Source: a virus. Taken from it: a stretch of DNA of 27,321 nt. Under the pieces are notes generated by a model, which searched no databases, was not told the origin of the DNA, and saw only the letters and a program-made list of their open reading frames with translations. Made by a program: the position numbers and the translations under genes. Below are positions 301-23,573 of this stretch, piece after piece. Where the stretch lies: the UHGV virus genome UHGV-0288412, one strand, 5' to 3'. How positions within the stretch are numbered: position 1 is the first letter of the stretch; every line of letters starts with the position of its first letter.

Positions 301-301
301 C

Positions 302-685: not shown

Positions 686-694
686 ATTACCCCC

Positions 695-1042: not shown

Positions 1043-1080
1043 GTTATACCCCCATAAGATTCTATGAGGGTATTTATGGA

Positions 1081-1764: not shown

Positions 1765-1765
1765 G

Positions 1766-1936: not shown

Positions 1937-1955
1937 ATATTCACCCCTTTTATTA

Positions 1956-2234: not shown

Positions 2235-2287
2235 TACGCCCCCGATATTTTTATATAGTTTAATGGCAAAATTATTTAGATAAAAAT

Positions 2288-2321
2288 AATCCCGCCTAAC
2301 TCAAAAGAATTAAGCGGGATT
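2288..2321 (-). terminator. Rho-independent terminator downstream of the J-like gene
   Basis: On the minus strand AATCCCGCTTAATTC-TTTT-GAGTTAGGCGGGATT forms a roughly 15-bp stem (two G-U pairs) followed by a U-rich run (AUUUUUAU). Confidence 0.6.
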
Positions 2322-2340
2322 AATTATTAAAATTAAATTT

Positions 2341-6536: not shown

Positions 6537-6582
6537 GTTGAATACCTCCATGCTGTTATTTACTAGGCTTAGGGAGAAGGGA

Positions 6583-7796: not shown

Positions 7797-7846
7797 AGAA
7801 AAGCCCCCGTAGTTTTATGATTATTTATCACTATGGGGGCTTTTAA

Positions 7847-10273
7847 TTACATCTTACGACGCTGAACGTCTTCTATCGCCTGAGCAACAAACTTAGCGTG
7901 ACGTTTGATAGCATCCATGACCATCTTGTCTGAGCTATTAACGTTGCCGTTAATGTTCAAAGGCGCATTAACTTCAATCGGCTGAGAGTTGCCACCTGAT
8001 TTTTGAGCAGCAAGGAAGTCTTTCAAATCACCGTTAGTACGCTGATCAACTACTCGTTCACCCTTATCAAGCAACCATGTACCCTCACGCGGGATGTTAT
8101 CGATACCATCATGAGCCATACCGCTAACGTTAGTAGACTTGATGTTTGCGATGTTCCCCATGTTCTGAGAAACAGCCAATGCAGCAGCAGCGATCTTTTG
8201 TCCTGTGGTAACGTTGGTCGGATCGTTCCATGCATCGGTAGCAGCCGTCCACATGTTCACCGTCGCTTGTCCGATAGAGAATGCTTTATGAGCATTGAAA
8301 GCCATCTGCATAGCTTTAGTGTTTTCCTGCCCGAAGAGAGTCATTGCAGCAGCAAAACCGCCATACATATCATCGGCTATTGACTGTCGAGCATCAGCAT
8401 ATTTCTTCTCAATTGCAGCCATTCGTTTTTGATGGTTTTCATTGAGTTTTTCTAATGCTTCCATCCGTTTAGCCGGATCATTAATACCGTCAATCTTGAG
8501 TTTATCGGTCTTATAATCTTGTTCAGCATCCGATTTCTCTTTATCGATTGCATTAAATTTAGCAAACGGATTATTTGAGTCCTGATAGTCTAAGCTATTG
8601 GTCAACTGATTGGTTTTAAAACCATCCATTCCATGCAAAGAATCTTCAATCTGTGAATAACTTTGTTCGGTATCATTCACACGGCGCATATATTCTTCGT
8701 AGGAGATAGCCTTACCATCAAGTAACCGTTTATGGCTTTCTAACTCATTGTCCCTGATTTGTTGCAATTGTGTTAAAGCATTCAGAGCATCAACCGGATC
8801 AGCACCTAAGATCATTTTGTATACGTTTTCAGTATTCTGATCGATTAAGGATTGGCGTTTCGCGGCTGCGTCTTGCTGAGAGATTAAGCCCAGATCTAAA
8901 GCAGTATCCAAATCTTTCAAGCTGGCTTCTAACTGCTTGTTTTGAGAAGCAATAGACGCGGCGACTTGCCCTTGCAATTTAACATCAAGTGCATTCAGTC
9001 GCTTGATTGCATCCTCACGTTCTTTCTGTGCTTTTTCTGCGGCTTCCTTAGCCTTTTTAGCTGCCTCTTCCGCTTTCTTGCGCGCTTCTTCCTCGGCTTT
9101 CTTCTCGTTGCCAGACTTACCCAATGAAGCTGGTCGAGTTGGTGTAGTCGGGATAGTCAAATCACGGTTAGGATCTGCCTTGCGGGTTAGATGTTCCCCG
9201 TTATCGACAACAATCAGAGAGCCATTTTTCTTATAAGAATCACCAAAACGTTTCTTAAATCCTTCAACATCAAAGCCAGCAGTACGAGGATCGACACCAG
9301 CACCACGGATCGCGGCCTTTTCCCAATCTGCCAGATTATTCCAACGCTTTTCTTTATTGTACTTGTCAATAATCTTTTGAGCGTCTTTATGGTTGGTGTT
9401 AAGAATACCACCAGTTGCGGTCTTGCCTTCTTTATTCAGTCGATCTAATGCCCTGAATAGAGAACTCTTTTCCCAATCAATATTAAACCAGTCAAATAGC
9501 CAGTTTAAGCTATCAACCAAAGGACCAGTAATGGTCATGCCGACACCTTTCAGGTTATTTTCCAGCTTATTAATATTCTGAGAAAATTTATCATATTTTT
9601 TAGCGTTTTCTTCGGTGACGTTAACAGATTGATTCTGAATAGCGATCATCGCCTCTTGAGCACTATTATATTTCTCAAGCTGGCTGGTCATATGGCTTGA
9701 ATCACTGGATAAAGATTCCATCATGAACTTGATTTCAGCCATTGATTTTCCGGCTTTCTTCATGTCATAGAACACTTGGATCGCCGCTTTCATACCACCT
9801 TGCGGATCTGTCATGAAGTGAGCATAGTTTTCTAACTTAAGACCAACCGATTCTAAGTCATCAGCAATACCACCACCGTTAGCCCATGCATCACCCATTT
9901 TATCTAAGGTGTCTTTGTTGATATCACCAAATTTTTCAACTGTTAGGCCAGTGCCAGAAAATTCCTTTTCCAGTCTTTGAAGGGATTCAATCGAGAGTCC
10001 GGTCGCCTTAGATACTTCTGAATACTGTTTAACGTATTCCGCACCAGCTTTAGCGGCTGCAACCACTGCGGTCGCAACTAAGCCGATACCACCAGCAGCC
10101 AAACCAGCAGAGCCAGCGATCCCACGAAGAGATCCAGTCAAACCAGACAAGCCACCACCAAAATCAATACCACTTGCCTTTTCAGACAAACTATCGAGAA
10201 GGTCGGCGGCTTCACTGGTACTTCTCCTTAGACCTTTATTATCCCCTTCTATTGTTACTATATGTTTTGTCAT
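7847..10273 (-). CDS. Tail tape measure protein (808 aa)
   Basis: Long, Ala/Gly-rich N-terminus with Gly-rich hydrophobic stretch, extended charged coiled-coil segments (AEEEARKKAEEAAKKAKEAAEKAQKERE); lies immediately after the G/T chaperone pair. Confidence 0.8.
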   Translation of the reverse strand: MTKHIVTIEGDNKGLRRSTSEAADLLDSLSEKASGIDFGGGLSGLTGSLRGIAGSAGLAAGGIGLVATAVVAAAKAGAEYVKQYSEVSKATGLSIESLQRLEKEFSGTGLTVEKFGDINKDTLDKMGDAWANGGGIADDLESVGLKLENYAHFMTDPQGGMKAAIQVFYDMKKAGKSMAEIKFMMESLSSDSSHMTSQLEKYNSAQEAMIAIQNQSVNVTEENAKKYDKFSQNINKLENNLKGVGMTITGPLVDSLNWLFDWFNIDWEKSSLFRALDRLNKEGKTATGGILNTNHKDAQKIIDKYNKEKRWNNLADWEKAAIRGAGVDPRTAGFDVEGFKKRFGDSYKKNGSLIVVDNGEHLTRKADPNRDLTIPTTPTRPASLGKSGNEKKAEEEARKKAEEAAKKAKEAAEKAQKEREDAIKRLNALDVKLQGQVAASIASQNKQLEASLKDLDTALDLGLISQQDAAAKRQSLIDQNTENVYKMILGADPVDALNALTQLQQIRDNELESHKRLLDGKAISYEEYMRRVNDTEQSYSQIEDSLHGMDGFKTNQLTNSLDYQDSNNPFAKFNAIDKEKSDAEQDYKTDKLKIDGINDPAKRMEALEKLNENHQKRMAAIEKKYADARQSIADDMYGGFAAAMTLFGQENTKAMQMAFNAHKAFSIGQATVNMWTAATDAWNDPTNVTTGQKIAAAALAVSQNMGNIANIKSTNVSGMAHDGIDNIPREGTWLLDKGERVVDQRTNGDLKDFLAAQKSGGNSQPIEVNAPLNINGNVNSSDKMVMDAIKRHAKFVAQAIEDVQRRKM

Positions 10274-10276
10274 AAA

Positions 10277-10627
10277 TTACCCCGTTTGTGCGCTTCTGAG
10301 TTTCTCAAGCAAAGATGGATCGAACATGCTCAATGTTGCAGCTTTACGTTCTTCTTCTTTCTTGCGTGCAAGTTCTTCCATTTCTTCTTTAGTTTTAAAG
10401 AGTTTTTCTTCTCTAATTAACTGGAATTGGCTAGGCTTGAGTTTCTTTGCAGTTTCGCGTGTCATTCCTTGCGACGTCATATACATGGAATATTGCAACA
10501 TCGCATTCTGCATATCATGAAACGCGGGGCTTTGTGGTTCTAAGTAGGTGTCGAAAATGTATAATTTCCAAAACAGAGTGATTGGCATATTATCCATTTC
10601 ATCTTTACTAAGCCCCGATCTCATCAT
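10277..10627 (-). CDS. Tail assembly chaperone, T segment (expressed as a G-T fusion by -1 frameshift)
   Basis: ORF is in the -1 frame relative to the G-like ORF and stays open upstream to 10672, overlapping the last 5 codons of G; gene order matches lambda G/G-T/H. Confidence 0.55.
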   Translation of the reverse strand: MMRSGLSKDEMDNMPITLFWKLYIFDTYLEPQSPAFHDMQNAMLQYSMYMTSQGMTRETAKKLKPSQFQLIREEKLFKTKEEMEELARKKEEERKAATLSMFDPSLLEKLRSAQTG

Positions 10628-10656
10628 TTGCCGGAAATAGAAATTCAGAAGCGGGT

Positions 10657-10663
10657 TTACTTT
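10657..10663 (-). promoter_or_regulatory. Candidate -1 frameshift site A-AAG-UAA at the end of the G-like gene
   Basis: Minus strand reads GAG GUA AAG UAA; tRNA-Lys on AAG can re-pair on AAA in the -1 frame, and the following stop would slow the A site; the -1 frame then continues VNPLLNFYFRQMMRSG... into the T ORF. Confidence 0.45.
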
Positions 10664-10965
10664 ACCTCGTTTTCAATTACTGCCGGATCTTGCATCAATG
10701 ATGCTTGAGCAACCAAACCGATTAATTCACTGCGGACGTTAGTATACAGTGCCTTAACTTGTTCCATAGATTCAAATACTGGCTTACCGTCTTCATCTTC
10801 AATACAACGAAGAATCGAACGTTCATCACGGTCATCTTTATCGGTATTGAAAACATGTTCGTTAAATTCTTTTACTGACATAGGGCGAGCATAGAAAGTG
10901 AATCCACCGATGGTCAGAGATTCACGTTTCGGAGAAAGAGCTTTCAGCATTTCATTAATATTCAT
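10657..10965 (-). CDS. Tail assembly chaperone, gpG-like (102 aa)
   Basis: Small acidic protein immediately upstream of the T segment and tape measure gene; ends ...ENEVK-UAA. Confidence 0.55.
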   Translation of the reverse strand: MNINEMLKALSPKRESLTIGGFTFYARPMSVKEFNEHVFNTDKDDRDERSILRCIEDEDGKPVFESMEQVKALYTNVRSELIGLVAQASLMQDPAVIENEVK

Positions 10966-11007
10966 TCTTGTTTCCTCTTAAGTTAATTCGATATGTTTAT
11001 TTAGAAT

Positions 11008-11514
11008 TTAAGAGATTTTCAAAGTCTGCTTAGTGCCAGTCTTCTTAATGTTGGTAAGGAAAGCAGCCGGAGGATTGCTTAACCAATAGTAATGAAAACC
11101 ACTTTGCATACTGTTATAAGGAACAGTGACAGCAGCACCACCCAAATTAACGGTTATATTCCCCGCTCTACCGTTCTGGAGATATACAGCCATAGTAGGA
11201 GTACCGCCATTGAATTGACCAACGATAACGCCAATCAGACGCCCTACGCCCACGTTTTCGGGGTTCTCCATAGATCCTTTACCGCGCATGTCAGTTACTG
11301 GATAGTTTGAAGCAGTTACACCCCAGTTATTACCCAATGAAGTAGACCACGCAGCAGTAGCTACAACCGTATCCATACCACGACCACACATCGCACTCAT
11401 GTTAGCTGGGCGACTAACCTTTAATGCGTTCATTGCTGCGCTCATCCATCGTTGACCAGTTACAGAAACAGCAGATGACCCGACCCAGCCAGGCTTATTA
11501 ACGACATTCGCCAT
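11008..11514 (-). CDS. Hypothetical Gly/Ala-rich protein (168 aa), probably tail-associated
   Basis: Clean ORF with GGAG Shine-Dalgarno, between the upstream terminator and the G-like gene; no motif recognised. Confidence 0.4.
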   Translation of the reverse strand: MANVVNKPGWVGSSAVSVTGQRWMSAAMNALKVSRPANMSAMCGRGMDTVVATAAWSTSLGNNWGVTASNYPVTDMRGKGSMENPENVGVGRLIGVIVGQFNGGTPTMAVYLQNGRAGNITVNLGGAAVTVPYNSMQSGFHYYWLSNPPAAFLTNIKKTGTKQTLKIS

Positions 11515-11527
11515 TTTGATTACTCCA

Positions 11528-11558
11528 ATAAAAAAGCCCCACCATTAAGGCAGGGCTT
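11528..11558 (-). terminator. Rho-independent terminator (copy A)
   Basis: Minus strand AAGCCCUGCC-UUAAU-GGUGGGGCUU followed by UUUUUU; a 10-bp stem with two G-U pairs. Near-identical to the terminator at 17364-17390. Confidence 0.7.
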
Positions 11559-11562
11559 ATAA

Positions 11563-11688
11563 TTAATCTTTAGCCTTGCGGCCTCGTTTTGCTGTGGCTT
11601 TCGCCGTAACTTCTTCTACTTCTGGAATCACCACCGCTTCATGTTCCGGCAGTGGTTCCGGTTCTGGTAAAGGAAGTTCTTCGTTAGT
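11563..11688 (-). other. In-frame 41-codon extension after the UGA stop of the 157-aa gene (candidate readthrough product)
   Basis: After UGA (11689-11691) the same frame reads TNEELPLPEPEPLPEHEAVVIPEVEEVTAKATAKRGRKAKD before UAA at 11563-11565; verified codon by codon. Confidence 0.55.
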
Positions 11689-12162
11689 TCATCCAGCGGT
11701 AAACACTTCCTGTTTCAGCGGAGCACCATCAACGGCAAAGGTAAACTCTTTAGTTACCACTTCTTCATCGCCACCGTTCATAGCAACTTTAGAAATGAAG
11801 CCGTTGTAAGCAATGCGAATACCAGTCTGTTTTCCGGCGTCAACATAATACTCTACTTTGATCTGGCAGCGAGTGCCGTCTTCGGCAGCTTTTGCGAGCT
11901 TCTCGTGTACCGCATCACCTGGGATGTAGTTAACGGTCAGAGTCAGATCTTCAACGTTCAGTTTACCAACCAGCTTACGGTTATACTGAGAAGAATACGA
12001 TTTGACTTCTACCGTACCGCGAGACAGTGAATATTCAGGAAAACCAGCACACTCTTTAATTTCTTCGTATGCTTCATCGGCAAGGTCGGTGTTAGTGGTA
12101 TCGGCGTGATAGAACAGACTTACCAGACCACCAGTAAAAATATCTTTGAATTGCTGAGACAT
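11689..12162 (-). CDS. Structural protein, possibly tail-tube-like (157 aa), ending at UGA
   Basis: Follows the fibre gene; pattern VGKLNVEDLTLTVNYIPGD...QIKVEY loosely resembles the core of the V-like protein at 15794-16627; ends VFTAG-UGA in the context GCUGGAUGAACUAAC. Confidence 0.45.
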   Translation of the reverse strand: MSQQFKDIFTGGLVSLFYHADTTNTDLADEAYEEIKECAGFPEYSLSRGTVEVKSYSSQYNRKLVGKLNVEDLTLTVNYIPGDAVHEKLAKAAEDGTRCQIKVEYYVDAGKQTGIRIAYNGFISKVAMNGGDEEVVTKEFTFAVDGAPLKQEVFTAG

Positions 12163-12219
12163 AGAATTACCCCTTAATTAAAATTGTTTATAACGGGGGA
12201 ACTAGTCCCCCGACTTTTA

Positions 12220-12561
12220 TTATTTAGTTGCTTTCAGTTCGGCAATTTCTTTCTGTAATGCTTCGATCTGTGCTTTATATTTGGCGTCCATTTCCTGCAT
12301 AGCCTTGATGATTAAAGCATTGACAGCAGAGTTAGAAATAGTCTTGATTGCTTCTGGATTTTCTGGATCATCGGTGGATTGAATACCTACTGCTTCCGGC
12401 AATACTTCTTCCAGATCCTGAGCAATAATACCTACTTCGCGTTTAATCACACTACGGTCTTTAAGAGATTTAACTTTATCGTAGGTGTAGACTTTCAGTG
12501 AGTTTACTTTCTCTAATGCGCCGTCCTGTAATTCTTCCTTGTTAATTTTCAAACGGGAGTC
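12220..12561 (-). other. Intramolecular chaperone domain of the tail fibre; predicted autocleavage at the S/D junction in RSDSRLK
   Basis: Conserved S-D-x-R-L-K-x-N motif at residues ~1052-1059, followed by a coiled-coil C-terminus (AQIEALQKEIAELK). Confidence 0.6.
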
Positions 12562-15500
12562 AGAGCGAATGTAAACATCGTTAAAGCTACCGTTACGACC
12601 TGCGGTAAAGTCACCAGCAGCGTTAAAGTCAAAGTTAGTATCATGAACATGGAGACGAACAAGAGCGTTACCGATAGTACCGCTAGGAACATGCACACCC
12701 ATTGCTGCAATGTGATATTTACCTTGATGGGTTGCTTTCCAGATGTTATGAGCGGAATCGGTTGATTGCTGGCAGTCGACCTGAATACCGGAAGCACGAT
12801 CACGCCAGCTAGCCCAACTACCACCAGCAACGCTACCACGAATAAGACCATTACCGCCACCGGATACAGTGCCCGTTTCAAGGTGAATCATCTTACCGCC
12901 GAATTTCCAGACTTCGGCTTGTTTCTCACCGCGCATACGCATAACACCAGCATCATCGCAGTACAACAGACCCAACTCTAAGCCGTTTGGATCTCTAAAC
13001 CATAAATGCTTGTTACCGCTTCGTTTAAATTCAATATCAGCACCGTTGATAGTGATATTACCGCCAGTGTGAATTGCTTTAGGCTTAACAGTACCGTTAA
13101 TGGAAAACTCGATTAATTCAGTACCCGGACCACCCGGTCGTTGTGTGTACCAGTGCCAACCGCTTTCATCAGCGCATTCGAATACTTGTTTACGAGCATC
13201 AGCACCCCATGCACGAATATTAAACGTTGATGTGGCGGTCCCCTTACCCCAACGAATTTGTCCAGCAGCTTCCAAATCACCGAAGAATTTAGTTTTAATC
13301 GCACCAGTTGCTAAAGTACGTTCAGTGGTGAAGTGTGCACCTTTGCTATCGTCAAGCTGTAGGATGTTATCACGAGCGTTATTACTATCGCCCCAATGGT
13401 TAAACCGGAAATAATCACGAGAATTTAATCGTCCAGCATCAAAGGTTAACATCCCATTACCGACATAAATGTCACCCGCAAAACGAGCAGCACGGCTATC
13501 TCTTTCGAGAACTAATGCACCTTCGTTACCATCACCACCTAACGTAACTTTACCCGTTGACAGGTCGTAAATGAATGGTCGGTTGCCGTTCCAACCACCA
13601 AATTTATCGTTTTCAGCAGTAGACAACAAATATACTTTTTGACCATCATTACGCCAGAATGCACCGTAGTTACCATAGATCATACGGAATGCGTTAGCGT
13701 ATGCAGCAACATATTCGCCGTTGGTGTATACAATTTTTGTTTTGCCAGTGGATAATGAAACCTGACCGTTCTCATCTAGACGTAATGAGTTATTACCTTC
13801 GGTTAATTCGTTTACTAGCTGCAACGTGTTAGTAGTTCCATCACCATAGCCTAGATAACCTTGACGGCGGTTAGCACCACTACGATAATCCATAAACTCC
13901 ATGTAGTTGCTTTGTCCGGTGCGTCGTTCCATTCGGATAGCATTATTGCCCTTAGTGAAAAGACGAACAACGGAAGTTCCGTTAGAGTCAATTCTTAATT
14001 TCTCGTCGGCATCAGTAGTACCCGTTGCTAGGCGATAGGTGCTACCTTCAACAGTTTCATGCCATATGGTCTCTACGGCTTGGCTACGGAATTTACGCAG
14101 ATATTTTTTAGCGCGTTCTTGTGTATTACTCAAACTTACAATATCGTAAGTTGCTTGTGAGTTATTATCAAAAGACAGAGTACCGCGTTTATTTTCAGTG
14201 TTAAACAGAGTAATAACTCGACCTTCGTTAACACCAGTAGACGGTTTAACGAGAGTTAATTCAGGCGTATCATACACATTTAAAGTCACATCAGCACTTT
14301 TACCGTACTCTACAGTTACTTTATCGGTATATTTGCGATATTTCACGTATACATCATAGTTATCGCCAGAAGTATTGACCGCAAAGGTTTCAAATTCATT
14401 ATTAGTATTTCGACGATAAGCTACAACGTTTACACCTTTCGGGTTTCCATTACCGGAACGGATAACAATTTCTACAATATCACACTGATCAGGACTATTA
14501 ACGTTATAACCATTCCCACCGAAAATACGGATGAAAAAGCCTCGACCACCTTGTGGAATTGTTGCCGTTGCCAGTTTAAAGTAACCAGCCGCATTTTCAC
14601 CAGTTGACATATGAACGGGTTTAGTGAACATCTGATCAACTTCGGCTTTACTATACACACCCAATTCAGTCGGAGTCGGCTTATCACCTTCGTGATACAT
14701 GCGGTAGCTGAATCGCTTATTACCATCTTTATCAAAGCCATAGGTTTTAACTTGAGATGAGCTAGACCCATAGTGGAACTCAAAACCGCGACCGTGTGCT
14801 TTACCGCCAGAATGAGGAATGTTAAGGATTAAGTTACCCCAACCTTCGGCATTGTTTGGACGGAATGCACCAAAATAATCAAGGTTACGAGCACCAGCAT
14901 CATCAAAATAGTTAGCTGTTTTGGTTAACAGATAGCCGTGATGGTAAGTGTTGGTATTCTTCTTGATGTAAGCAGCATCGGCACTACCTTCAATCGAATC
15001 AATTCGCTGGTTAGCTGCGGCAATTGCGGCATCAGTAGAAGATTTATTCTGGTCTACCTTGTTGTTAATTGCGGTATGGTTGCTATTAACAGTGCCAGTA
15101 AGATTGGTGATCTTCGTGTCGGCATCGCGTTTATTATTTGCTACGGTCGTTTCTATGGCTGATTTATTTGCTGCGACAGTATTCGTTAAGTTGGTAACGT
15201 TGGTATTAGTCTGATCAACTCGCGCATTAATATCTGTCTTGTTCTTGTTAATTGTCGCGTTGATAGTATCGCGGGTTGAAGTAATAGTCTGATTCAGTTC
15301 AGTCTTAGCAGCCGCCAGAGCGTTAGCCGCTTCGGTTTTATTGTTACCTACTGTGGTAGTCAAAGCATCAATTCGTTTGTTGGCTGCGTTATCTCCAGCA
15401 GTGATTGAAGCATTGAGAGTATCACGGGTAGAAGTGATAGTCTGATTCAGTTCAGCTTTAGCACTAGCCAGATTATCAGCGGCTTCTTGTTTGTTGGAAG

Positions 15501-15717
15501 CAATAACACGGTCAGTGTTGGTTTTGTTATTGTCTACTTTCGTATTCAGTTCAGCGTGTTTTTCTGGAGAAACACTAATTTGAACTACTGCGTTATTTTT
15601 ATCTTTGGTATACAGAACGTGATCAGCAAGGTTAATAGCCAATTCACCCTGTGATAATTGTTCCGGCGTTGGTTTTTTACCAGCCGTCTGTGTGCGTTTA
15701 AATTGGATTGATTGCAT
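12220..15717 (-). CDS. Long tail fibre with C-terminal intramolecular chaperone (S74-type autoproteolytic domain), 1165 aa
   Basis: N-terminus QFKRTQTAGKKPTPEQLSQGELAINLADHVLY is a recurrent fibre N-terminal motif; long N/T/A-rich coiled-coil region; C-terminal ~113 aa beginning SDSRLKINKEEL... matches the chaperone domain of T5 L-shaped fibre and endosialidases as I recall it. Confidence 0.8.
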   Translation of the reverse strand: MQSIQFKRTQTAGKKPTPEQLSQGELAINLADHVLYTKDKNNAVVQISVSPEKHAELNTKVDNNKTNTDRVIASNKQEAADNLASAKAELNQTITSTRDTLNASITAGDNAANKRIDALTTTVGNNKTEAANALAAAKTELNQTITSTRDTINATINKNKTDINARVDQTNTNVTNLTNTVAANKSAIETTVANNKRDADTKITNLTGTVNSNHTAINNKVDQNKSSTDAAIAAANQRIDSIEGSADAAYIKKNTNTYHHGYLLTKTANYFDDAGARNLDYFGAFRPNNAEGWGNLILNIPHSGGKAHGRGFEFHYGSSSSQVKTYGFDKDGNKRFSYRMYHEGDKPTPTELGVYSKAEVDQMFTKPVHMSTGENAAGYFKLATATIPQGGRGFFIRIFGGNGYNVNSPDQCDIVEIVIRSGNGNPKGVNVVAYRRNTNNEFETFAVNTSGDNYDVYVKYRKYTDKVTVEYGKSADVTLNVYDTPELTLVKPSTGVNEGRVITLFNTENKRGTLSFDNNSQATYDIVSLSNTQERAKKYLRKFRSQAVETIWHETVEGSTYRLATGTTDADEKLRIDSNGTSVVRLFTKGNNAIRMERRTGQSNYMEFMDYRSGANRRQGYLGYGDGTTNTLQLVNELTEGNNSLRLDENGQVSLSTGKTKIVYTNGEYVAAYANAFRMIYGNYGAFWRNDGQKVYLLSTAENDKFGGWNGNRPFIYDLSTGKVTLGGDGNEGALVLERDSRAARFAGDIYVGNGMLTFDAGRLNSRDYFRFNHWGDSNNARDNILQLDDSKGAHFTTERTLATGAIKTKFFGDLEAAGQIRWGKGTATSTFNIRAWGADARKQVFECADESGWHWYTQRPGGPGTELIEFSINGTVKPKAIHTGGNITINGADIEFKRSGNKHLWFRDPNGLELGLLYCDDAGVMRMRGEKQAEVWKFGGKMIHLETGTVSGGGNGLIRGSVAGGSWASWRDRASGIQVDCQQSTDSAHNIWKATHQGKYHIAAMGVHVPSGTIGNALVRLHVHDTNFDFNAAGDFTAGRNGSFNDVYIRSDSRLKINKEELQDGALEKVNSLKVYTYDKVKSLKDRSVIKREVGIIAQDLEEVLPEAVGIQSTDDPENPEAIKTISNSAVNALIIKAMQEMDAKYKAQIEALQKEIAELKATK
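15259..15472 (-). repeat. Imperfect direct repeat (~60 bp, two copies 154 bp apart) inside the fibre coiled-coil region
   Basis: gttgatagtatcgcgggttgaagtaatagtctgattcagttcag (15259-) against cattgagagtatcacgggtagaagtgatagtctgattcagttcag (15413-); encodes AELNQTITSTRDT(L/I)NA twice. Confidence 0.65.
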
Positions 15718-15793: not shown

Positions 15794-16627
15794 TCAATAC
15801 TCCCCGAAATCGACTCTATCGGTCTTAGCTACTGCGCCAATTTCGCTAGGTGTCGGTTTCTCATTGGTGGAATATACCTTGATCCATTCAGAACGACCGT
15901 TTTCCTGAATATTTCGGACACGTAAACGCGGTGCGCCAGAAGTATTACAGGTTAATTGCCATGCGCCATGCTCATTAGCTTGAAGGTGAATTAATGATGT
16001 GTCGGTTGAATATGGATTACCGCTAGCAGTTCCCTTGTAAGTTACGAAACGGTTTCCGGCTAATGCCTCGCTATCAATCGGACCCGTGAATGGATTTACA
16101 CCAGCACCCAAACCAAAATCACCCTGACGTAAGATCCGGCCTTCGGTAGCAATACCCCTTGCCAAAATCCCGCCATCTGGTTCAAGTTTAAATTCCAGTG
16201 TTACAGCTTTGTTATCGCTACCACGGGTTTTATGTGATGTGACGTAAGCATCATAGATGACATAGTAACCAGTGTTAGCAGCACTATAGCCAGAGTTAAC
16301 AACATAGAACATACGGAAGCGTAAAGGTGTTTTATCCTCTACCGCTTTCATCAACAATGCTTGATGTTCGTCATCCAGAACACGGTTTAATGTGAGTGTT
16401 GTTGGTTCCAGTCTACGATAACCAGCAAGTTTCCCCGTAGCGTCCTGATCGTACTCTTCCAGAGTTTCAATCTCTGTGGATTCGGTTAGCGTAGGGAATG
16501 CTGCGACGTTCTCAATAGAACTAAAGCTAGGATCGAAAAAGTCCGGCTGGCTATCGACCATAGTAGACACGGAGACTTCAACATGCGACCCCGTAAAAAT
16601 ATCTAAGTTATCATGCGTAATATTCAT
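15794..16627 (-). CDS. Major tail tube protein, lambda gpV-like (277 aa)
   Basis: EEYDQDATGKLAGYRRLEPTTLTLNRVLDDEHQALLMKAVEDKTPLRFRMFYV parallels my recollection of lambda V (ESYDDS...TATGQ...FTLAW...[20 protein letters not shown]); follows the U-like gene; C-terminal extra domain ending KPTPSEIGAV. Confidence 0.6.
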   Translation of the reverse strand: MNITHDNLDIFTGSHVEVSVSTMVDSQPDFFDPSFSSIENVAAFPTLTESTEIETLEEYDQDATGKLAGYRRLEPTTLTLNRVLDDEHQALLMKAVEDKTPLRFRMFYVVNSGYSAANTGYYVIYDAYVTSHKTRGSDNKAVTLEFKLEPDGGILARGIATEGRILRQGDFGLGAGVNPFTGPIDSEALAGNRFVTYKGTASGNPYSTDTSLIHLQANEHGAWQLTCNTSGAPRLRVRNIQENGRSEWIKVYSTNEKPTPSEIGAVAKTDRVDFGEY

Positions 16628-16636
16628 TATTACCCC

Positions 16637-17059
16637 TTAAAAACGCGCTAGATAAGAAAATTTAAGGCTAAGTGTCCCAACGATACCCCCATCACTAGAA
16701 TCATCGTCATAATCGGTATTAGAAGCTACTGGAGTGATATCTGAAATAGAGAAGCCCAAATCTTTAAAACGTGGGTTATCTGGCTGAATCTGGATTATCT
16801 GGCAAATACCCTCATGGATTTTGGTTTCATGAATCTGAGAATACAATTGCATTTCGATAACGCATTCAGCTTGCATTGCATTACCACCACGGACCCTATT
16901 GTAAGTCTCATTCATTCCGGTAATCCAACAAACCACATCATCACTAAAGCCTTGCTGAGTTTGTTCTACGTTTAAAGCCAGACCTAAATCTTGTTCGATA
17001 ATATCCTGCAAGGCGCGTTTGATTTTCAGTCTCGGCATATTATTAACGGTAGCGAGCAT
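16637..17059 (-). CDS. Tail terminator protein, lambda gpU-like (140 aa)
   Basis: VVCWITGMNETY...AECVIEMQLY...DYDDDSSDGGIVGTLSLKFSY parallels recalled lambda U (AVAVYLTGAEY...AELHIEVFL...DYRRDDDAGLWSSADLTYVITYE); position upstream of the V-like gene. Confidence 0.5.
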   Translation of the reverse strand: MLATVNNMPRLKIKRALQDIIEQDLGLALNVEQTQQGFSDDVVCWITGMNETYNRVRGGNAMQAECVIEMQLYSQIHETKIHEGICQIIQIQPDNPRFKDLGFSISDITPVASNTDYDDDSSDGGIVGTLSLKFSYLARF

Positions 17060-17333
17060 GTGTACCCCCTGCTAAAGTGATAAAGCAATCAGTTGTATTG
17101 TCACCATTGCGCTTAACGTATTGAACTTTGAAACGCTGGTTTTCTACTGTGACAATATCACCTTGCTTTAAGTCTCCCTCACGACAAAATAGAAATTCGG
17201 TTTCTGTCATTACCCCTGATTCGTCGGTAGTAGTAATTTCATGATAAGCACGAATTGATTTACCACCTTCCACCGAAAATACAGGAGCACTTCGGAACAT
17301 TCTTGATAATTGTGATTCTGATAATTTGAACAT
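17043..17333 (-). CDS. Head-tail joining protein, lambda gpFII-like (96 aa)
   Basis: FLFCREGDLKQGDIVTVENQRFKVQYVKRNGDNTTDCFITLAGG parallels recalled lambda FII (LFVRTDEVRQLRRGDTLTIGEENFWVDRVSPDDGGSCHLWLGRG); first gene after the capsid terminator. Confidence 0.45.
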   Translation of the reverse strand: MFKLSESQLSRMFRSAPVFSVEGGKSIRAYHEITTTDESGVMTETEFLFCREGDLKQGDIVTVENQRFKVQYVKRNGDNTTDCFITLAGGTHARYR

Positions 17334-17363
17334 AGTTACCCCCTTTATGGAGTATTTACATAC

Positions 17364-17390
17364 AAAAAAGCCCCACCGTTAGGCAGGGCT
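17364..17390 (-). terminator. Rho-independent terminator (copy B)
   Basis: Minus strand AGCCCUGCC-UAAC-GGUGGGGCU followed by UUUUUU; near-identical to copy A at 11528-11558. Confidence 0.7.
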
Positions 17391-17395
17391 AATTA

Positions 17396-17524
17396 TTATT
17401 CTTTAGTTTTACGTTGTTTTTTAACTGTGGCTTTCGCCGTAACCTCTTGAACTTCTTCTTCCTGAGATGGAATCAGATTTTCTTCCCCCAAATCGGGGGA
17501 AGGTTCAGAAGGTTCTACGCTAGT
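17396..17524 (-). other. In-frame 42-codon extension after the UGA stop of the capsid gene (candidate readthrough product)
   Basis: After UGA (17525-17527) the same frame reads TSVEPSEPSPDLGEENLIPSQEEEVQEVTAKATVKKQRKTKE before UAA UAA; verified codon by codon. Confidence 0.55.
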
Positions 17525-19531
17525 TCATTCAGCGGAGATGTGAAGAACTTTCAGAGCTTCCGGCTGAGTAACAACATAATCCAGGTCTACCCAGATACGC
17601 GGAACAATTGCGGACTGTGCACGGTAGGTCGTGTCGTCCATATCCAATTCCAGACCGCCCCACTCACCGATAGTAATACCGGAGAAGTCACCCAGAACGA
17701 TGTGGTCTGCCGGAATAACGCCAGAAGTAACTACATCGTAACCAGCCAGTTTGCCGTTTTCGATGATATAACCGGAAACGCCGTTATCTTTCAGGGTAGA
17801 TTCCAGTTCAGCAGCAGTTGCACCGCTCATCGCAAACTTGATCGCCTGAGCAGGAACGCCAGCGTCAGTCAGTGCTGCAATTTCTTTCAGGAAGTCTTTG
17901 TAAGAGAAAGCGGCTTTCTTAGTAACGCGACCACCGTCTACCAGTTGTTTAACCAGACCAGCCGGACCGCGAGCATTTTCTTTATCAGACAGAATCAGTT
18001 GTTCCAGTTTGATGCGAACAGCTTTGTTAATGTGATCAGTGATCAGGGTAGCGATGCCCGGAACAGTTTTCAGCGACTGACGGCTGATCGGGTTGCCACC
18101 AGCAAAAGTTTTCGGAGACAGTTTCACGTTCGCAAATTCAGCTTTGCTTTCCGGTGCAGCACCGTTTTCATCAACGAAGCCGAAAGCGTCAACGCTGGAA
18201 GCGGTCATTTTTGGAATAGCGGTCGGAGCATTCAAGCCACTGTAAACAGTCACACCGAGGCGGCCTAAAACACTCTGAGGCAACAGCATTTCTACATAGG
18301 ATTCGGTCAGCAGTTTTTCGTCGGTGATAGCAGTCAGATCGGCTTTGGTGTTACCAGCAGCAGCAGCACGCATAGCAGCAGCCGGAACGAATACAGAGCC
18401 ACCGCGAGCAGCACGACCACGCTGCATAGTTGCAGTAGCAGCCATTGCGGAATATTCAGCTTCGTTAGCACCCAGAGCAGCACCATCTACCAGAGAGCGA
18501 ATTACGTTGTTCAGGTCAAAAGTTTTTTCCATGATTTGTTCCTTATTAATTTGTTCGTTATTACGTTGAGCATTGGTAATGTTATTTAGTGCCTTAGTGC
18601 GGAATGCTTCCGGCGTCATGTCTTTAATTGCCAATGCGCGTTTTAATTCTTCGTCGTCAATATTTAGTTCCCGCGCGATCTCGCGGATTTCTAATTCGTC
18701 TTCTTCGGAACGTTCAGCCACTTCCTCGGTTTTTTCTTCTTCAACCGGAACGGCTTCACGTTCTTCTTTTACTTCTTCTGTTTCCCGAACAGTTGAACTA
18801 TCATCATCAACACTTTCAGGATGTTCAGCGTCTTTTCCGTCTTCGAGATTTTCATTTTCTTTATTCTCTTCAACTTGGCGCTCTTGAGTTTCTTCAACTT
18901 CCGATTCTTTATTTTCTTCTACCGGAGTTTCTTCAACCTGAGCGGATTCTTGTTCTTCTTTGATTTCTTCAATTTGTTCTTTAGTCATATCGCGTTTAGC
19001 CTCCAAATTAACTGTGATAGTATTTAGAGAGCGATTTAAACCGACCGTATCGTCTGCGGGAACGGTGACAAATGAGAGTTCATAGGGTGCCCACTTAGTA
19101 ACAATCAATTGCCCTTTGGCGTAATCGATGTGATATTCTTTAATGTCATAGCCGACAGAAATTTTTTCCATCGTACCTTCAATGACTTTATTACGAATAT
19201 CATTAGCCATAGTCCCATGCTTGGAGAACTTAACCAGAGCACGACCTACGTTATCCGCATCGATTCGAGCGTTACAAACGACACCAATGTGATTATCGAA
19301 ATTGTGATTGAACAGCAACGGAGCGTTATTATTCAGACGAGACAGATCAACCGCTTCCGGTGTATGTACCAGAATTTCATCTAATACCACCATTTCTTGA
19401 TTTTGCTCATCCCAGAATTGGCGCTGATAAGGCTGTTCACTGGAGAAAGCAATTTCAAATTCGTATTGATCGTTATGCCCTTCGTTAATAACTCCACCGT
19501 AACCGTTAAGATCGCGGCGAAATTTAAGCAT
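17525..19531 (-). CDS. Fused prohead protease (HK97/S78-type) - scaffold-like acidic linker - major capsid protein (668 aa), ending at UGA
   Basis: N-terminus PLLFNHNFDNHIGVV...GRALVKF...ISVGYDIKEY fits the S78 prohead protease pattern (catalytic His and Ser); central Glu-rich coiled-coil (EEIKEEQESAQVEETPVEENKESEVEE...); C-terminal ~370 aa capsid-like; follows the portal gene; AGGTGA Shine-Dalgarno. Confidence 0.8.
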   Translation of the reverse strand: MLKFRRDLNGYGGVINEGHNDQYEFEIAFSSEQPYQRQFWDEQNQEMVVLDEILVHTPEAVDLSRLNNNAPLLFNHNFDNHIGVVCNARIDADNVGRALVKFSKHGTMANDIRNKVIEGTMEKISVGYDIKEYHIDYAKGQLIVTKWAPYELSFVTVPADDTVGLNRSLNTITVNLEAKRDMTKEQIEEIKEEQESAQVEETPVEENKESEVEETQERQVEENKENENLEDGKDAEHPESVDDDSSTVRETEEVKEEREAVPVEEEKTEEVAERSEEDELEIREIARELNIDDEELKRALAIKDMTPEAFRTKALNNITNAQRNNEQINKEQIMEKTFDLNNVIRSLVDGAALGANEAEYSAMAATATMQRGRAARGGSVFVPAAAMRAAAAGNTKADLTAITDEKLLTESYVEMLLPQSVLGRLGVTVYSGLNAPTAIPKMTASSVDAFGFVDENGAAPESKAEFANVKLSPKTFAGGNPISRQSLKTVPGIATLITDHINKAVRIKLEQLILSDKENARGPAGLVKQLVDGGRVTKKAAFSYKDFLKEIAALTDAGVPAQAIKFAMSGATAAELESTLKDNGVSGYIIENGKLAGYDVVTSGVIPADHIVLGDFSGITIGEWGGLELDMDDTTYRAQSAIVPRIWVDLDYVVTQPEALKVLHISAE

Positions 19532-19576
19532 TTAATCACCTTTAATTAATTGGGGGCATTGCGCCCCCGTTGGTTA

Positions 19577-21088
19577 TTAGGGATCGGCTGGGGAATTTTT
19601 TTCTTCACCCTCGCCATTAACGATAATATTTAGTGCGCTCTTTTCGGCTTGAATCTCTGAGAATACTTTTTCAGGATCATCACCACGTTCCAATATAACG
19701 GCAGTACGTGATTTAAGTCCGTTATCAATTAAAGCAATCTCGGCGCTTACGTCTTTAAATGGATCGACGGATTCAAAACGCGGACGAATAATAGTAGTGT
19801 TATCGATAATATGTGGAATTGCAGTAATACGAATCGGAACAACACCACGCGCGGAATAATGGCGTAGATATGCTTCGAAAATGGGCGACACCACTGTTTC
19901 AATCAATTTGTTTTGCAGTGCTTTAACTCGTGTGCGCTGGGTTAATTCACCGAAACGTGCGGCTGAGTAGTTGATCTGGCTAGTGTCACCAGTCAAGCCC
20001 TGTTTAAACACGCCTAAGCCCATTGATACGCTAGTAAACATCGCATCATTGAAGCTGTTAAAGTCATCACCGCTTTGCGTCGCCTGGATGCTCTTGATCG
20101 TTGCCCCTTCCGGTAATTCCTGAATAGTACCAGGTGCAAAATCCTGTACTACTTCCGGCGCTTGATATTGTTCATCATCTTCACCAGTATCAAAATCGTC
20201 ACCAGAATCTTTCGGACGCTCGATAAAGCCCATAGAGCTAGCTGCAATGCGTTTCTGGATAATTGCAGTTTCGCGGAATGCGTCTTGATGTGCGATATCC
20301 TTAATCACTGGCAGGAAGTCAGTCACACCACGCAGGGATTCGGCGGTAAGCGGTTGATAATAATGACATACTTGCGATGCATCTACGCGATAGTTATCAC
20401 CTGTGTAAGTCTGAGTCAGTAGGTTGATTTTACGAAACCAGTATGCAACAGGGCGCATTGTGTTCACGTCATACTCCACACCTTGATATATCGCACGCTC
20501 TTTGCTTATTTCACGGTTTAGCGACCAGTCGCATTTATCAGCAGACAGGATAGAAACATTTAACTCATTGTTTTCTTTAGTTAAAACGATGAAACACTCA
20601 CCACCCATAACGCGCTCACGTTCAGCCATTACCAGCAATTCACGGAAGTTAAAACGACCATTGCGAGAGAAGCGTTTAGCATTCTGCGCCCACTTCCAGA
20701 AAGCATTCTCGATCTGCTTATTCAGTGCGCTATCAAGTTTTCCATTTGGTTTAACAACTGACGGCTTCGGATCTAGGCCAGTACCTACCACCATATCGGT
20801 GATGTATTGCGTGTAGCGACTGCCTACGGAAGTGTTTAAGGCCAGAGTACGACCCTGATCATAAAGGCGCTTACCATTCGATTTGAGAGCCTTATTGAAG
20901 GTTCCTGTAATGGTGTCTTGTTGAAGTGATCCATCAATACGATCACCAACCAGTCCTAAACTACGAGTCGCCAGAGATTTCTGGAATTTTTCTACTTGCT
21001 TATCGATGAAAATTTTTGGTTGTTGCTGGCGGTGATTAGTTTTAACTGGAGTTTCTACCGCCTTTTTGCGTCGAAAAAGATTAAACAT
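19577..21088 (-). CDS. Portal protein (503 aa)
   Basis: Size and position between large terminase and protease/capsid gene; acidic C-terminus; assignment is by synteny and size rather than a specific motif. Confidence 0.7.
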   Translation of the reverse strand: MFNLFRRKKAVETPVKTNHRQQQPKIFIDKQVEKFQKSLATRSLGLVGDRIDGSLQQDTITGTFNKALKSNGKRLYDQGRTLALNTSVGSRYTQYITDMVVGTGLDPKPSVVKPNGKLDSALNKQIENAFWKWAQNAKRFSRNGRFNFRELLVMAERERVMGGECFIVLTKENNELNVSILSADKCDWSLNREISKERAIYQGVEYDVNTMRPVAYWFRKINLLTQTYTGDNYRVDASQVCHYYQPLTAESLRGVTDFLPVIKDIAHQDAFRETAIIQKRIAASSMGFIERPKDSGDDFDTGEDDEQYQAPEVVQDFAPGTIQELPEGATIKSIQATQSGDDFNSFNDAMFTSVSMGLGVFKQGLTGDTSQINYSAARFGELTQRTRVKALQNKLIETVVSPIFEAYLRHYSARGVVPIRITAIPHIIDNTTIIRPRFESVDPFKDVSAEIALIDNGLKSRTAVILERGDDPEKVFSEIQAEKSALNIIVNGEGEEKNSPADP

Positions 21089-21098
21089 GATTTACCCC

Positions 21099-21596
21099 TT
21101 ATCGCGTAAGACGTAATTTGATATTTTTAATCGGGCTAATTCCCTGTTTACGTCGTTCGGCTTGAATTAATTTAGATAACTGACGTTCATAATCGACTTT
21201 TAGAGTCTGGAGAACACCCAATGACTCATAAACGAAAGTATTCCCTTTCACTGTCATTTGAGATAATGCGGCTTCGTCCCCAGATAAACGGGCGAAAATA
21301 ACTTGCTCGATTAAGACGATAGTTTCCCGCAGATATTCTTTTTTGGATTGTTTGGCGAATACTGGTAAAACAGTTAATTCCTGCATTGATATCAGTTCTT
21401 CTTCCAAAGTTATTACGATGGTATATTTACCTTCGGCAAAATCTAAGGTTTTAATCTCGTGATTAGCCGGAGTATCATCAACCTGATAAATGATACCTTT
21501 ATTACTATTTCCTACCTGAATTGTTACACCCTCTTCATTCGCCAGCGTGATTTTTTCGCCTTTACGAATTACTAAGGGAATTAGTTCTAAACTCAT
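21099..21596 (-). CDS. Hypothetical protein (165 aa) between terminase and portal
   Basis: Clean ORF in the gpW-equivalent position but larger than lambda W; no motif recognised. Confidence 0.4.
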   Translation of the reverse strand: MSLELIPLVIRKGEKITLANEEGVTIQVGNSNKGIIYQVDDTPANHEIKTLDFAEGKYTIVITLEEELISMQELTVLPVFAKQSKKEYLRETIVLIEQVIFARLSGDEAALSQMTVKGNTFVYESLGVLQTLKVDYERQLSKLIQAERRKQGISPIKNIKLRLTR

Positions 21597-21668: not shown

Positions 21669-23573
21669 TTAGAACGATGTTATCCAGCTACGGCCTCTAT
21701 TTGGACGTCTGACGATGTTTTGACGTTGTGGTCGTGTGATTGGCTTATTTTCTTCGATTTGCTCGTCAGATTGCGATTTAGGAGCTTCTACGGGTTCTTC
21801 TGGTTCACGGTTCAAACTATCTTTGATGGCTTCGAGTTTTTCCCATGACATTTTATTGAGTACATGGCGAGAAGCAGCATAGGAATAAGCCAGGCAGTCG
21901 AGAGCCTCGTTTCGTTGCTGACCAACTTTTACCCAACGTGTGGTATTACCCTGCCGTTTCAACTGTTCAGAAAGCAATTGCTCGCAATAGTCATCAGGAA
22001 CGTCACCAATCTGGAAGACAGTGTGAGGATCGCCATCTCTCAAGTTCCGGTTAATCATTTCACGGATCATCGTTTTAAGGTTGTTTACGCCCAGAATTTT
22101 AAGGGTAAAACCACCCGTTCTTGTGTCTTTTACCGGAAGGATTGGTGCATCAACATTGCTTGCGCCTTTAATGGCGCATAGATTTTGCCACCTAGTGCAA
22201 AAGCGGTAGATCACTTGCGTAGCTCGTCCGTTTGATGAGTCCACGAAAGCGGATAGCATCGGGATTCGTTGACCGGATCGGGTATAGAATTTTGCTTTCA
22301 GGAAGTTGTAAAGCTGGTCATATGCTGGTGATTCGTGGCGTTCGCAGTTCACATCATAGAATGATCGGTGATCAACTACGCATAGACCTTTACGAGAAAT
22401 ACCCAGCAAGGTAGATTCCAGACGGTCTTTTTGCTGGTCAACTCCACCTACCAGAGCCAGTACATCATCAGGAATATTGTCTAGGCTAATATCAGTTTTC
22501 AGCGTTTCCAGTTCGTCGGCTGTGCGGTCTTCGTTAAGATCATCGAAGGTTTCACCGAGGACTGTATTGTAGAACGTTGCCAGGGACATATTCGCGTAGC
22601 TATCAGCAAAGTCCACCACACACGCACGGATAGAACTAAACGGAGACATAAGGCGGTTAGCATGAAAACCGATTACTTCCGCATTTGGTTCGGTGGCGAC
22701 CCATTCTCCCTTAGCAACAGCACGTAGGCGATCCCCTTCGGTCCAGTCGGTTTCACATTCAGGACAACGATAAACGGCTGTATCTGGGTTGGGTAATGAT
22801 TTACCGTTAATCGTATGCCAATCGAAATGTACGTTACTCCATTCCATTACGTGCTTGTGTCCGCAATGCTGGCAAACGACATGATATTTTCTCTTATCCG
22901 AGAGTTCCCATTGTTGGTTAATCGCCCCATCACGAGCGGTTGGAGTGGAAGCAATTACGATCCTTGCATCTTCCCCGAAAGTGGTTGCGCGTTGTTCCGC
23001 TAGCTGGATCGGGTTCCCTTCGTCTGACTCATCAGCCGCATCAACTTCATCAAGAATAATCAAAGGGAGTGTTTTACCGCGAAGATGTGACGGACTATTC
23101 AACGACATGAAATACATAAACGATCCGTTACGAAGCTGAATAATCGATGAGTTGTTAACGGCATTGCGATCTGATTTGTCGGTGATCATCGCCTTTAATT
23201 CTGGCGTTGCCTCTAATACTGGCTTCACCTTACCAGCGATCCAAGAATTTAGTTCCCTAACGTTACTTTGCAACACCCCGATATTAGTAGGGTTACTCGC
23301 GATCCGATGGAAGATAATTCCGTTAAGAATCATGGTCTTACCCAACTGTGCCGAACATTTAAACACAATTTTTCTACGGTCTTCGGTGATCGCGTCCATC
23401 ATTCCACGTTGGAAGGGATGCAATTTAATTAGCGATCCGGCTTTAACACCATCGGTAGCAACTACATTAGCCTCTACCCATTCGCTAGGTTTCATGGCTT
23501 TAGGTGGACGAATTGCAGCAGAGATATTTTTAAGAATCTTTTTTAATTTGGCCTTGTTCGAAATCAGTTTCAT
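21669..23573 (-). CDS. Terminase large subunit, lambda gpA-like (634 aa)
   Basis: Walker A-like SAQLGKTM and Walker B-like LIILDEVD in the N-terminal ATPase; CQHCGH...CPEC zinc-ribbon-like motif; acidic nuclease-like C-terminal half; first gene of the structural operon. Confidence 0.8.
   Translation of the reverse strand: MKLISNKAKLKKILKNISAAIRPPKAMKPSEWVEANVVATDGVKAGSLIKLHPFQRGMMDAITEDRRKIVFKCSAQLGKTMILNGIIFHRIASNPTNIGVLQSNVRELNSWIAGKVKPVLEATPELKAMITDKSDRNAVNNSSIIQLRNGSFMYFMSLNSPSHLRGKTLPLIILDEVDAADESDEGNPIQLAEQRATTFGEDARIVIASTPTARDGAINQQWELSDKRKYHVVCQHCGHKHVMEWSNVHFDWHTINGKSLPNPDTAVYRCPECETDWTEGDRLRAVAKGEWVATEPNAEVIGFHANRLMSPFSSIRACVVDFADSYANMSLATFYNTVLGETFDDLNEDRTADELETLKTDISLDNIPDDVLALVGGVDQQKDRLESTLLGISRKGLCVVDHRSFYDVNCERHESPAYDQLYNFLKAKFYTRSGQRIPMLSAFVDSSNGRATQVIYRFCTRWQNLCAIKGASNVDAPILPVKDTRTGGFTLKILGVNNLKTMIREMINRNLRDGDPHTVFQIGDVPDDYCEQLLSEQLKRQGNTTRWVKVGQQRNEALDCLAYSYAASRHVLNKMSWEKLEAIKDSLNREPEEPVEAPKSQSDEQIEENKPITRPQRQNIVRRPNRGRSWITSF

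Follow-up and report, generated by a model that had tools for sequence, protein, structure and literature searches.

A protease–linker–capsid fusion gene of an Escherichia coli prophage with a candidate internal start and a candidate UGA-readthrough cassette

Introduction

The viral genome UHGV-0288412 was analysed over a stretch of 27,321 nucleotides (nt), here called the window, with emphasis on one minus-strand gene at positions 17525–19531 whose 668-residue product combines a prohead protease and a major capsid protein (MCP) in a single polypeptide. Protease–capsid fusions are a known, named and common architecture rather than a new one. They have been described in the Rhodobacter phage cluster RcC (PMC8601537), S78 protease–MCP fusions are found in thaumarchaeal proviruses (PMC6563490), and the SEA-PHAGES functional terms include 'major capsid and protease fusion protein'. 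The novelty that an initial annotation, made from the sequence of the window, implied for the fusion was overstated, as an NCBIfam name, PHROG families and papers already exist for it. What goes beyond existing annotation is evidence for an internal start at the boundary between protease and linker, and a putative readthrough cassette that the capsid gene appears to share with the tail tube gene. The overall best explanation of the locus, to which we assign a probability of roughly 0.6, is a protease–linker–scaffold-like–capsid precursor that is probably made as several primary products.

Module organization of the fusion protein

From the N- to the C-terminus, the open reading frame (ORF) encodes an S78 protease, an acidic linker, a helical domain and an HK97-fold MCP. 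Confidence in the AlphaFold2 models is given as the predicted local distance difference test score (pLDDT).

17525–19531, minus strand: protease–capsid fusion gene, ATG start, 668 codons plus TGA (ORF list, Pfam, PHROGs, NCBIfam)
19028–19471, minus strand: S78 prohead serine protease domain, residues 21–168 (Pfam PF04586, alignment with HK97 gp4, AlphaFold2)
19304–19306, minus strand: His76 codon, candidate catalytic residue, aligned with HK97 gp4 His65
19157–19159, minus strand: Ser125 codon, candidate catalytic residue, aligned with HK97 gp4 Ser114
19079–19081, minus strand: Glu151 codon, invariant among 93 homologues
18722–19027, minus strand: acidic Glu-rich linker, residues 169–270, predicted to be disordered (composition; AlphaFold2 pLDDT below 50)
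18341–18721, minus strand: helical domain, residues 271–397 (AlphaFold2 helices at residues 276–391, pLDDT 82–97)
17528–18337, minus strand: HK97-fold capsid domain, approximately residues 399–668 (Pfam PF05065, PDB 8GTA, Foldseek)

Profile searches bear out the initial annotation in its core claim, that an S78-type N-terminal protease domain and a C-terminal capsid domain lie in one ORF. Both Pfam profiles score above their cut-offs, Peptidase_S78 (PF04586) over residues 40–162 with 41.5 bits against a cut-off of 21, and Phage_capsid (PF05065) over residues 411–664 with 90.5 bits against 24.2. PHROG 617 ('major head protein') aligns end to end with residues 21–663 (E 3e-92), and PHROG 4523, which is also matched, bears the name 'major head and protease protein'. 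The NCBIfam family NF045541 ('prohead protease/major capsid protein fusion protein') matches partially, over residues 22–348; since its score of 128.4 bits is far below the cut-off of 525, the sequence comparison places the window protein in a different sub-family with the same architecture. An AlphaFold2 model of the full chain, built on an alignment of homologues, has a mean pLDDT of 82 and displays a disordered linker in addition to three folded modules. The search and prediction tools directly show the domain content, the catalytic residues, the fold and the wide distribution of the architecture.

The absence of a separate protease or scaffold gene between portal and capsid, noted in the initial annotation, likewise holds: the gap between the two genes is 45 nt long, and no second protease or scaffold gene was found among the 17 other ORFs of the window, all of which were scanned with Pfam and seven also with PHROGs.

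The protease domain

Residues 21–168 form a beta-rich domain with a pLDDT above 90 in the full-chain model. In an alignment of 93 fused homologues, which outside the E. coli clade are 25–44% identical to the window protein, only five columns are invariant: Leu54, His76, Ser125, Glu151 and Gly614. His76 and Ser125 align with His65 and Ser114 of HK97 gp4, the catalytic residues of the HK97 protease. The protease domain looks active, given this alignment and the invariance of His76, Ser125 and Glu151.

Alternatively, the domain could be a degenerate relic that acts only as additional scaffold, and a protease of the host or a different one of the phage would carry out maturation, if there is any cleavage at all. 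The score of the narrower equivalog profile TIGR01543 falls below its cut-off (35.9 against 59), and the matches of the fold to solved proteases are weak: modelled alone, the domain reaches a pLDDT of 87, and its Foldseek matches, with E values of about 0.02 and template modelling (TM) scores of 0.3–0.45, are individually insignificant, which also weighs against our preferred assignment. The list of these weak matches is dominated by T4 gp21 (5JBL) and the herpesvirus assemblins, the fold expected for the clan. Set against the relic are a Pfam S78 score at twice its cut-off, the invariance of the catalytic His and Ser and of Glu151 in homologues as distant as those above, the lack of any other protease among the scanned window ORFs, and a virion chain of the homologous phage R4C (see below) that lacks the N-terminal 361 residues. 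We consider a relic very improbable.

The linker and the helical domain

The initial annotation described a Glu-rich coiled-coil of about 120 residues between protease and capsid domain. AlphaFold2 instead yields two distinct parts, a disordered region at residues 169–270 and a separate, confidently folded helical domain at residues 271–397. The acidic character is pronounced, with 28% Glu and a net charge of -35 over residues 181–345, and both the length and the sequence of the linker vary greatly among homologues. The helical domain terminates at a conserved G-x-x-V-P-x-D-x-L-R motif, whose Arg388 is present in 89 of 93 homologues; it is followed by a short hinge of low confidence (residues 398–407) and then by the HK97 fold up to residue 668. 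Because the position of the helical domain matches that of the HK97 delta domain, it may, by analogy, serve as an internal scaffold.

The capsid domain and its predicted maturation

The capsid part matches the phage R4C capsid (PDB 8GTA) in sequence (E 8e-25), and a Foldseek search with the capsid module returned the capsids of R4C (8GTA, E 1e-18), HK97, D3, RcGTA and SaPI1, with E values of 1e-18 to 1e-11. A BLASTP match of the capsid part to HK97 gp5 is barely significant, and the case is carried by the profile and fold searches.

Dinoroseobacter phage R4C is also informative with respect to maturation. Its gene 006 encodes a fusion of 629 residues with a homologous layout, and the chain in PDB 8GTA comprises exactly the last 268 residues of this protein (362–629), starting at Gly362; the N-terminal 361 residues are absent from the virion chain. 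In a joint alignment, R4C Gly362 corresponds to window residue 399, and the HK97 maturation cleavage site, Lys103|Ser104, lies two residues later. Arg388 precedes the R4C-equivalent chain start by ten residues. From the positions of the R4C chain start, the HK97 site and the Arg388 motif we infer a mature N-terminus between residues 389 and 402, which would leave a capsid protein of approximately 270–280 residues. Removal of the N-terminal part on maturation is thus supported indirectly, by way of R4C. It is important to point out that the virion protein of R4C could be longer, with the 268 residues of the chain simply its ordered part, which weighs against this interpretation, and that the R4C structure paper makes no mention of a protease, cleavage or mass spectrometry. 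The literature on the processing of fused capsid proteins, including that reached via phiHAP-1, yielded nothing informative.

Maturation had been called cis-acting in the initial annotation. This is not supported as stated, as the sequence cannot separate cleavage in cis from cleavage in trans, and either mode is compatible with a disordered linker of about 100 residues.

Distribution of the fusion and authenticity of the gene

A protein 100% identical to the window product over its 668 residues exists at NCBI as 'phage major capsid protein [Escherichia coli]' (entry P0001 in our set), and the identical protein occurs on six contigs. More than 100 variants of 665–669 residues, 95–100% identical, originate from independent E. 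coli and Shigella assemblies. The region is present in 55 of 5,426 complete E. coli genomes (approximately 1%) at 93–95% nucleotide identity, chromosomal in every case, and 48 complete genomes contain the whole of it. In strain PSJ-22 it lies within a prophage that adjoins ycdX, ghrA and tRNA-Ser. In the family at large, homologues form 461 clusters at 50% identity (E below 1e-30), nearly all of the best 150 being 560–700 residues long, and more than 570 IMG/VR loci contain the fused gene. Cultured phages with a homologous fused gene, identified with tblastn, include phiHAP-1, R4C, RcCronus, ECO1230-10, ep3, the FoX phages and Bas97.

These numbers bear on a more trivial account, namely that a frameshift, sequencing or assembly error has fused two or three genes. 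The identical protein on six contigs, the narrow length range of the variants, the intact region in complete genomes, and the clusters and viral loci that share the architecture already refute it, and what probability it retains is negligible; in particular, the same length and layout recur in the near-identical proteins and in hundreds of distant homologues. The ORF is thus one genuine gene, and it belongs to a siphophage-type prophage of E. coli.

Two records among the homologues deserve a separate remark. That of Escherichia phage DCP80 (PQ671644.1; bases 1–13786 are locus L003) is classified as a 141-kb T4-like Straboviridae phage, yet opens with a module of lambda-type terminase, portal and fusion gene, with all genes annotated as hypothetical and a fusion 44% identical to the window protein; the record may be a chimeric assembly. 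Protein P0143 (297 residues, 48% identical) consists of a protease domain and an acidic linker and has no capsid domain; it may be a truncated record or represent a lineage with a split fusion.

A candidate internal start at the protease–linker boundary

A Shine–Dalgarno (SD)-like element precedes an in-frame ATG at the boundary between protease and linker.

18986–19004, minus strand: candidate internal start, with GGAGG at 19000–19004, an 11-nt spacer and the in-frame ATG of codon 182 (18986–18988)

The odds that this ATG is used are about even; a start here would give a protease-less product of 487 residues comprising the linker, the helical domain and the capsid protein. The predicted duplex with the 3′ end of 16S rRNA has an energy of -9.3 kcal/mol, compared with -4.3 kcal/mol for the annotated start. 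Boundary sites are also present in relatives, such as GGAGG-N6-ATG in R4C and TAAGGA-N7-ATG in phage DCP80, and many IMG/VR loci have AAGGA- or GAGGA-type sites ahead of a boundary Met. A plain count of Met residues near the boundary was unconvincing (50 of 93 homologues, against approximately 40% by chance), and a test based on SD energies was used instead. It considered Mets up to 45 residues past the protease domain and a threshold of -5.5 kcal/mol or better, and the expectation was computed over every codon position in the same stretch, which is rich in purines. SD-like sites preceded 14 of 25 boundary Mets in 23 loci, against 3.6 expected (binomial p 1.6e-6, for loci that are phylogenetically non-independent); the sites include those of loci L002, L003 and L025–L052. 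The recurrence of the boundary SD and ATG across the family, well above chance, suggests that a nested product lacks the protease, that the protease is sub-stoichiometric, and that such nested products are a general feature of the protease–capsid fusion family.

Several observations weigh against the internal start. The 11-nt spacer between GGAGG and ATG is long, GGAGG reads GGGGG in two alleles of the prophage clade, and six of the 23 related loci have no boundary Met at all. Boundary Mets as such are not clearly over-represented, the linker is rich in purines, and the relatedness of the loci tempers the enrichment.

The same evidence bears on an alternative scheme, in which only the full-length chain of 668 residues is made, the protease is present 1:1 with capsid subunits and each chain is matured in cis. 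It fits the presence of one ORF and the failure to find a further protease or scaffold gene, the loci without a boundary Met would have to rely on full-length chains, and the GGAGG is not strictly conserved in the clade. By a rough estimate, 415 N-terminal parts of 44 kDa would take up about half of the lumen of a T=7 procapsid, which is tight and possible. This scheme has to contend, however, with SD-like sites before boundary Mets at four times the local-background prediction, with an internal SD in the window that surpasses the SD of the annotated start in strength, and with lambda C/Nu3, herpes simplex virus (HSV) UL26/UL26.5 and HFTV1 gp17/gp17.5, all of which use nested starts; the disordered linker, moreover, permits cleavage in trans too. 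On balance we hold an exclusively full-length product to be unlikely, with enough in its favour to be taken seriously. The 'stoichiometric' delivery of the protease proposed in the initial annotation is accordingly put in question, as the recurrent SD and ATG at codon 182 suggest a nested protease-less form. A precursor with probably more than one primary product remains our preferred reading.

The stop codon of the capsid gene and its in-frame extension

The 3′ end of the fusion gene has three further features.

17525–17527, minus strand: TGA stop with A as the next base (UGA-A), invariant in 20 of 20 clade alleles
17393–17524, minus strand: in-frame extension of 42 codons, TSVEPSEPSPDLGEENLIPSQEEEVQEVTAKATVKKQRKTKE, closed by TAATAA (17393–17398), a candidate UGA-readthrough tail
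17359–17390, minus strand: intrinsic terminator after the extension, with a 9-bp stem and a T-run, invariant in the alleles

UGA followed by A is a leaky stop context in E. coli. Twenty alleles of the prophage clade, 17 aligned and three more, were compared. All of them keep the TGA although the preceding two to four codons differ, and in each the frame past it stays open for 27–44 codons and ends at a double stop; among the 17 aligned alleles, the other two frames close within 0–10 codons. Four indels fall within the extension and measure 42, 27, 6 and 3 nt, that is, whole codons; the non-coding stretch of approximately 65 nt just downstream has three indels of 1 nt each. When the 126 nt of the extension were shuffled, the frame was open in only 6% of cases. 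TAA is the stop codon of 22 of 25 genes in the window and of 29 of 30 outgroup fusion genes; such an extension follows none of the 30. The encoded peptide is acidic and Pro-rich at first and then basic.

One result weighs against a coding extension: substitutions in it show no third-position excess, the variable sites numbering 9, 13 and 14 at codon positions 1, 2 and 3. The amino-acid identity of the extension thus appears to be weakly constrained, as would be expected of a disordered tail. Because this codon-position test was null, the coding case rests on frame preservation, on indel lengths and on the duplicated cassette described below. Programmed UGA readthrough is the most economical reading of these patterns and is strongly supported by the comparison; the remark in the initial annotation on a readthrough extension, there said to make at least three mature products possible, finds good support in the allele data as far as the extension is concerned. 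If readthrough occurs, the junction peptide of the capsid protein is predicted to be VLHISAE-W-TSVEPSEPSPDLGEENLIPSQEEEVQEVTAK. The extension is annotated in none of the RefSeq records inspected.

Other signals near the stop were considered as well. Past the UGA, the window sequence can form an extensive RNA structure (z = -4.9), which was rejected, as its outer stems are broken in other alleles, and so was an ATGA-type restart at the capsid stop, whose frame closes after two codons. An Rfam scan of positions 17300–19650 gave no match. Long alleles have in common an 8-bp hairpin (CTTCCCCC/GGGGGAAG) about 22 nt past the stop, and short alleles have a different hairpin, CCGGAA-GAAA-TTCCGG, after it.

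Sequences reminiscent of the extension occur in two relatives. In phage DCP80, an ORF in the -1 frame after the TAA of the fusion encodes ...SLGAEALDAAPVKKSKSASG, which resembles the window extension. The fusion of a viral locus (L029, IMGVR_UViG_2654587654_000004; protein P0123), 41–44% identical, ends with ...KGTPAEVKAALKASA before its TAA; here an Ala/Lys-rich tail, like the end of the readthrough peptide, lies within the normal reading frame.

A related cassette on the tail tube gene

The coding reading of the capsid extension gains from a second, homologous cassette that follows the tail tube gene.

11563–11691, minus strand: related cassette, in which the TGA-ACT stop of the tail tube gene (11689–12162) is followed by a 41-codon in-frame extension and then TAA

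The tail tube extension reads TNEELPLPEPEPLPEHEAVVIPEVEEVTAKATAKRGRKAKD, ending in ...VTAKATAKRGRKAKD, and the segment is homologous to that of the capsid gene at the DNA level, both in the vicinity of the stop and in its final 60 nt, which include the terminator. All nine tail tube alleles have TGA-ACT, with the extension open at 36, 39, 40 or 41 codons. Under readthrough, the predicted junction peptide is ...FTAG-W-TNEELPLPEPEP....

Judged from the sequences, the two major virion proteins seem to have a UGA-readthrough cassette in common. Its proposed parts are the last codons of the gene, the UGA-A, an acidic and Pro-rich linker, a basic 'TAKATAKRGRKxK' end and the terminator. On the most economical reading, a minority of capsid and tail tube subunits would carry an identical flexible tail. 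This tail would probably lie on the exterior of the virion, since HK97-fold proteins and lambda-type tube proteins have outward-pointing C-termini. A limited literature search found no described case of UGA readthrough decorating both the capsid and the tail tube of a double-stranded DNA phage.

Taken together, the capsid gene may be a recoding hub with four primary products, resulting from two starts (codon 1 or 182) and two ends (UGA or readthrough), and with a mobile cassette of approximately 150 nt shared with the tail tube gene; we put this composite proposal forward tentatively, at somewhat less than even chances.

Genomic setting

The fusion gene lies among head genes, with tail genes beyond the gpFII-like gene.

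21669–23573, minus strand: gpA-type large terminase
21099–21596, minus strand: head–tail joining protein
19577–21088, minus strand: lambda-family portal gene, 45 nt upstream of the fusion gene
19551–19569, minus strand: GC-rich hairpin GGGGGC-GCAAT-GCCCCC in the 45-nt portal–capsid spacer, without a T-run on the coding strand
17043–17333, minus strand: gpFII-like gene, downstream of the fusion gene

The spacer hairpin is kept in five alleles and may act in the processing or stability of the RNA, or as an attenuator. The order of the tail genes between 11008 and 16627 on the minus strand is unusual. A gene for a tail fibre of 1165 residues with a chaperone-like C-terminal end (12220–15717) lies between the lambda-like tail tube gene and a gene for a 277-residue protein (15794–16627), which has a weak 'major tail protein' PHROG match and ends with TGA, with no extension. 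The tube gene is followed by a gene for a protein with a T4 Gp38-like adhesin N-terminal domain (11008–11514).

A model of head assembly and maturation

Under the preferred reading of a precursor with several primary products, the precursors would co-assemble on the portal into a procapsid with their N-terminal parts inside. The shell may have T=7 symmetry, judging from related viral contigs of approximately 37–38 kb and from the homologous phage R4C. Concentrated within the shell, the protease domains would cut away everything N-terminal of approximately residue 389–402, the fragments would exit, and the capsid protein of about 270–280 residues would stay. Initiation at the internal SD and ATG of codon 182 would supply a protease-less form, and the ratio of the two translation products would set the dose of protease, as in lambda C/Nu3, UL26/UL26.5 and HFTV1 gp17/17.5. 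Leaky termination at UGA-A would equip a minority of subunits with a tail of 43 residues, acidic and then basic. In this model, what we infer is where the chain is cut, that the helical domain acts as scaffold, that translation also starts internally and reads through the stop, and every stoichiometry.

The fusion itself is routine to phage biologists; the control of protease dose in such fusions could matter more widely. The internal-start signal suggests that the fusions share the nested-gene logic of lambda, the herpesviruses and an archaeal virus. If the shared UGA-readthrough cassette is genuine, it would be a compact and easily engineered means of peptide display on some of the subunits of head and tail, and it is recorded in no current annotation of these prophages. 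Internal start and readthrough are both directly testable in E. coli, and raise the interest of the locus to a moderate level.

Comparison with known systems

The window protein shares its module order, its position after the portal gene and its conserved His/Ser/Glu residues with the named fusions (NF045541, PHROG 617 and 4523, the RcC phages and the thaumarchaeal proviruses). It differs from known fusions in being only 25–44% identical to its nearest relatives outside E. coli, and in its 3′ end, as the outgroup genes end with TAA and have no extension.

With HK97 gp4 and gp5 the window protein shares the aligned catalytic His and Ser, the capsid fold, and an N-terminal helical region ahead of that fold whose removal is predicted at an equivalent position. 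In HK97, however, the protease is encoded by a separate gene, is targeted non-covalently by a C-terminal tail and is present at well below one copy per subunit, whereas the window gene joins it covalently to the capsid protein via an acidic linker of about 100 residues and has a longer helical region.

Lambda C/Nu3, HSV-1 UL26/UL26.5 and gp17/gp17.5 of the archaeal virus HFTV1 each combine a long protease form with a more abundant short form that starts in frame at the domain boundary, and in HFTV1 the nested start has been shown by ribosome profiling (bioRxiv 10.64898/2026.09.13.751334). The short form of these nested genes is a free scaffold, whereas the putative short form of the window gene would still carry the capsid protein.

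Recoded C-terminal extensions of structural proteins are known from T7 10A/10B, from Cps and Tsh of Listeria phage PSA and from Lactobacillus phage A2, all of which arise by frameshifting, and from Qbeta A1, which arises by UGA readthrough. As in all of these, the candidate extensions of the window would lengthen a small share of a major structural protein, and as in PSA and A2 they occur on both the capsid and the tail tube gene. In the window, an in-frame UGA-A takes the place of a frameshift, and a single DNA-homologous cassette is present on two genes; the added peptide is short and probably disordered, acidic and Pro-rich with a basic end, and not an immunoglobulin-like domain.

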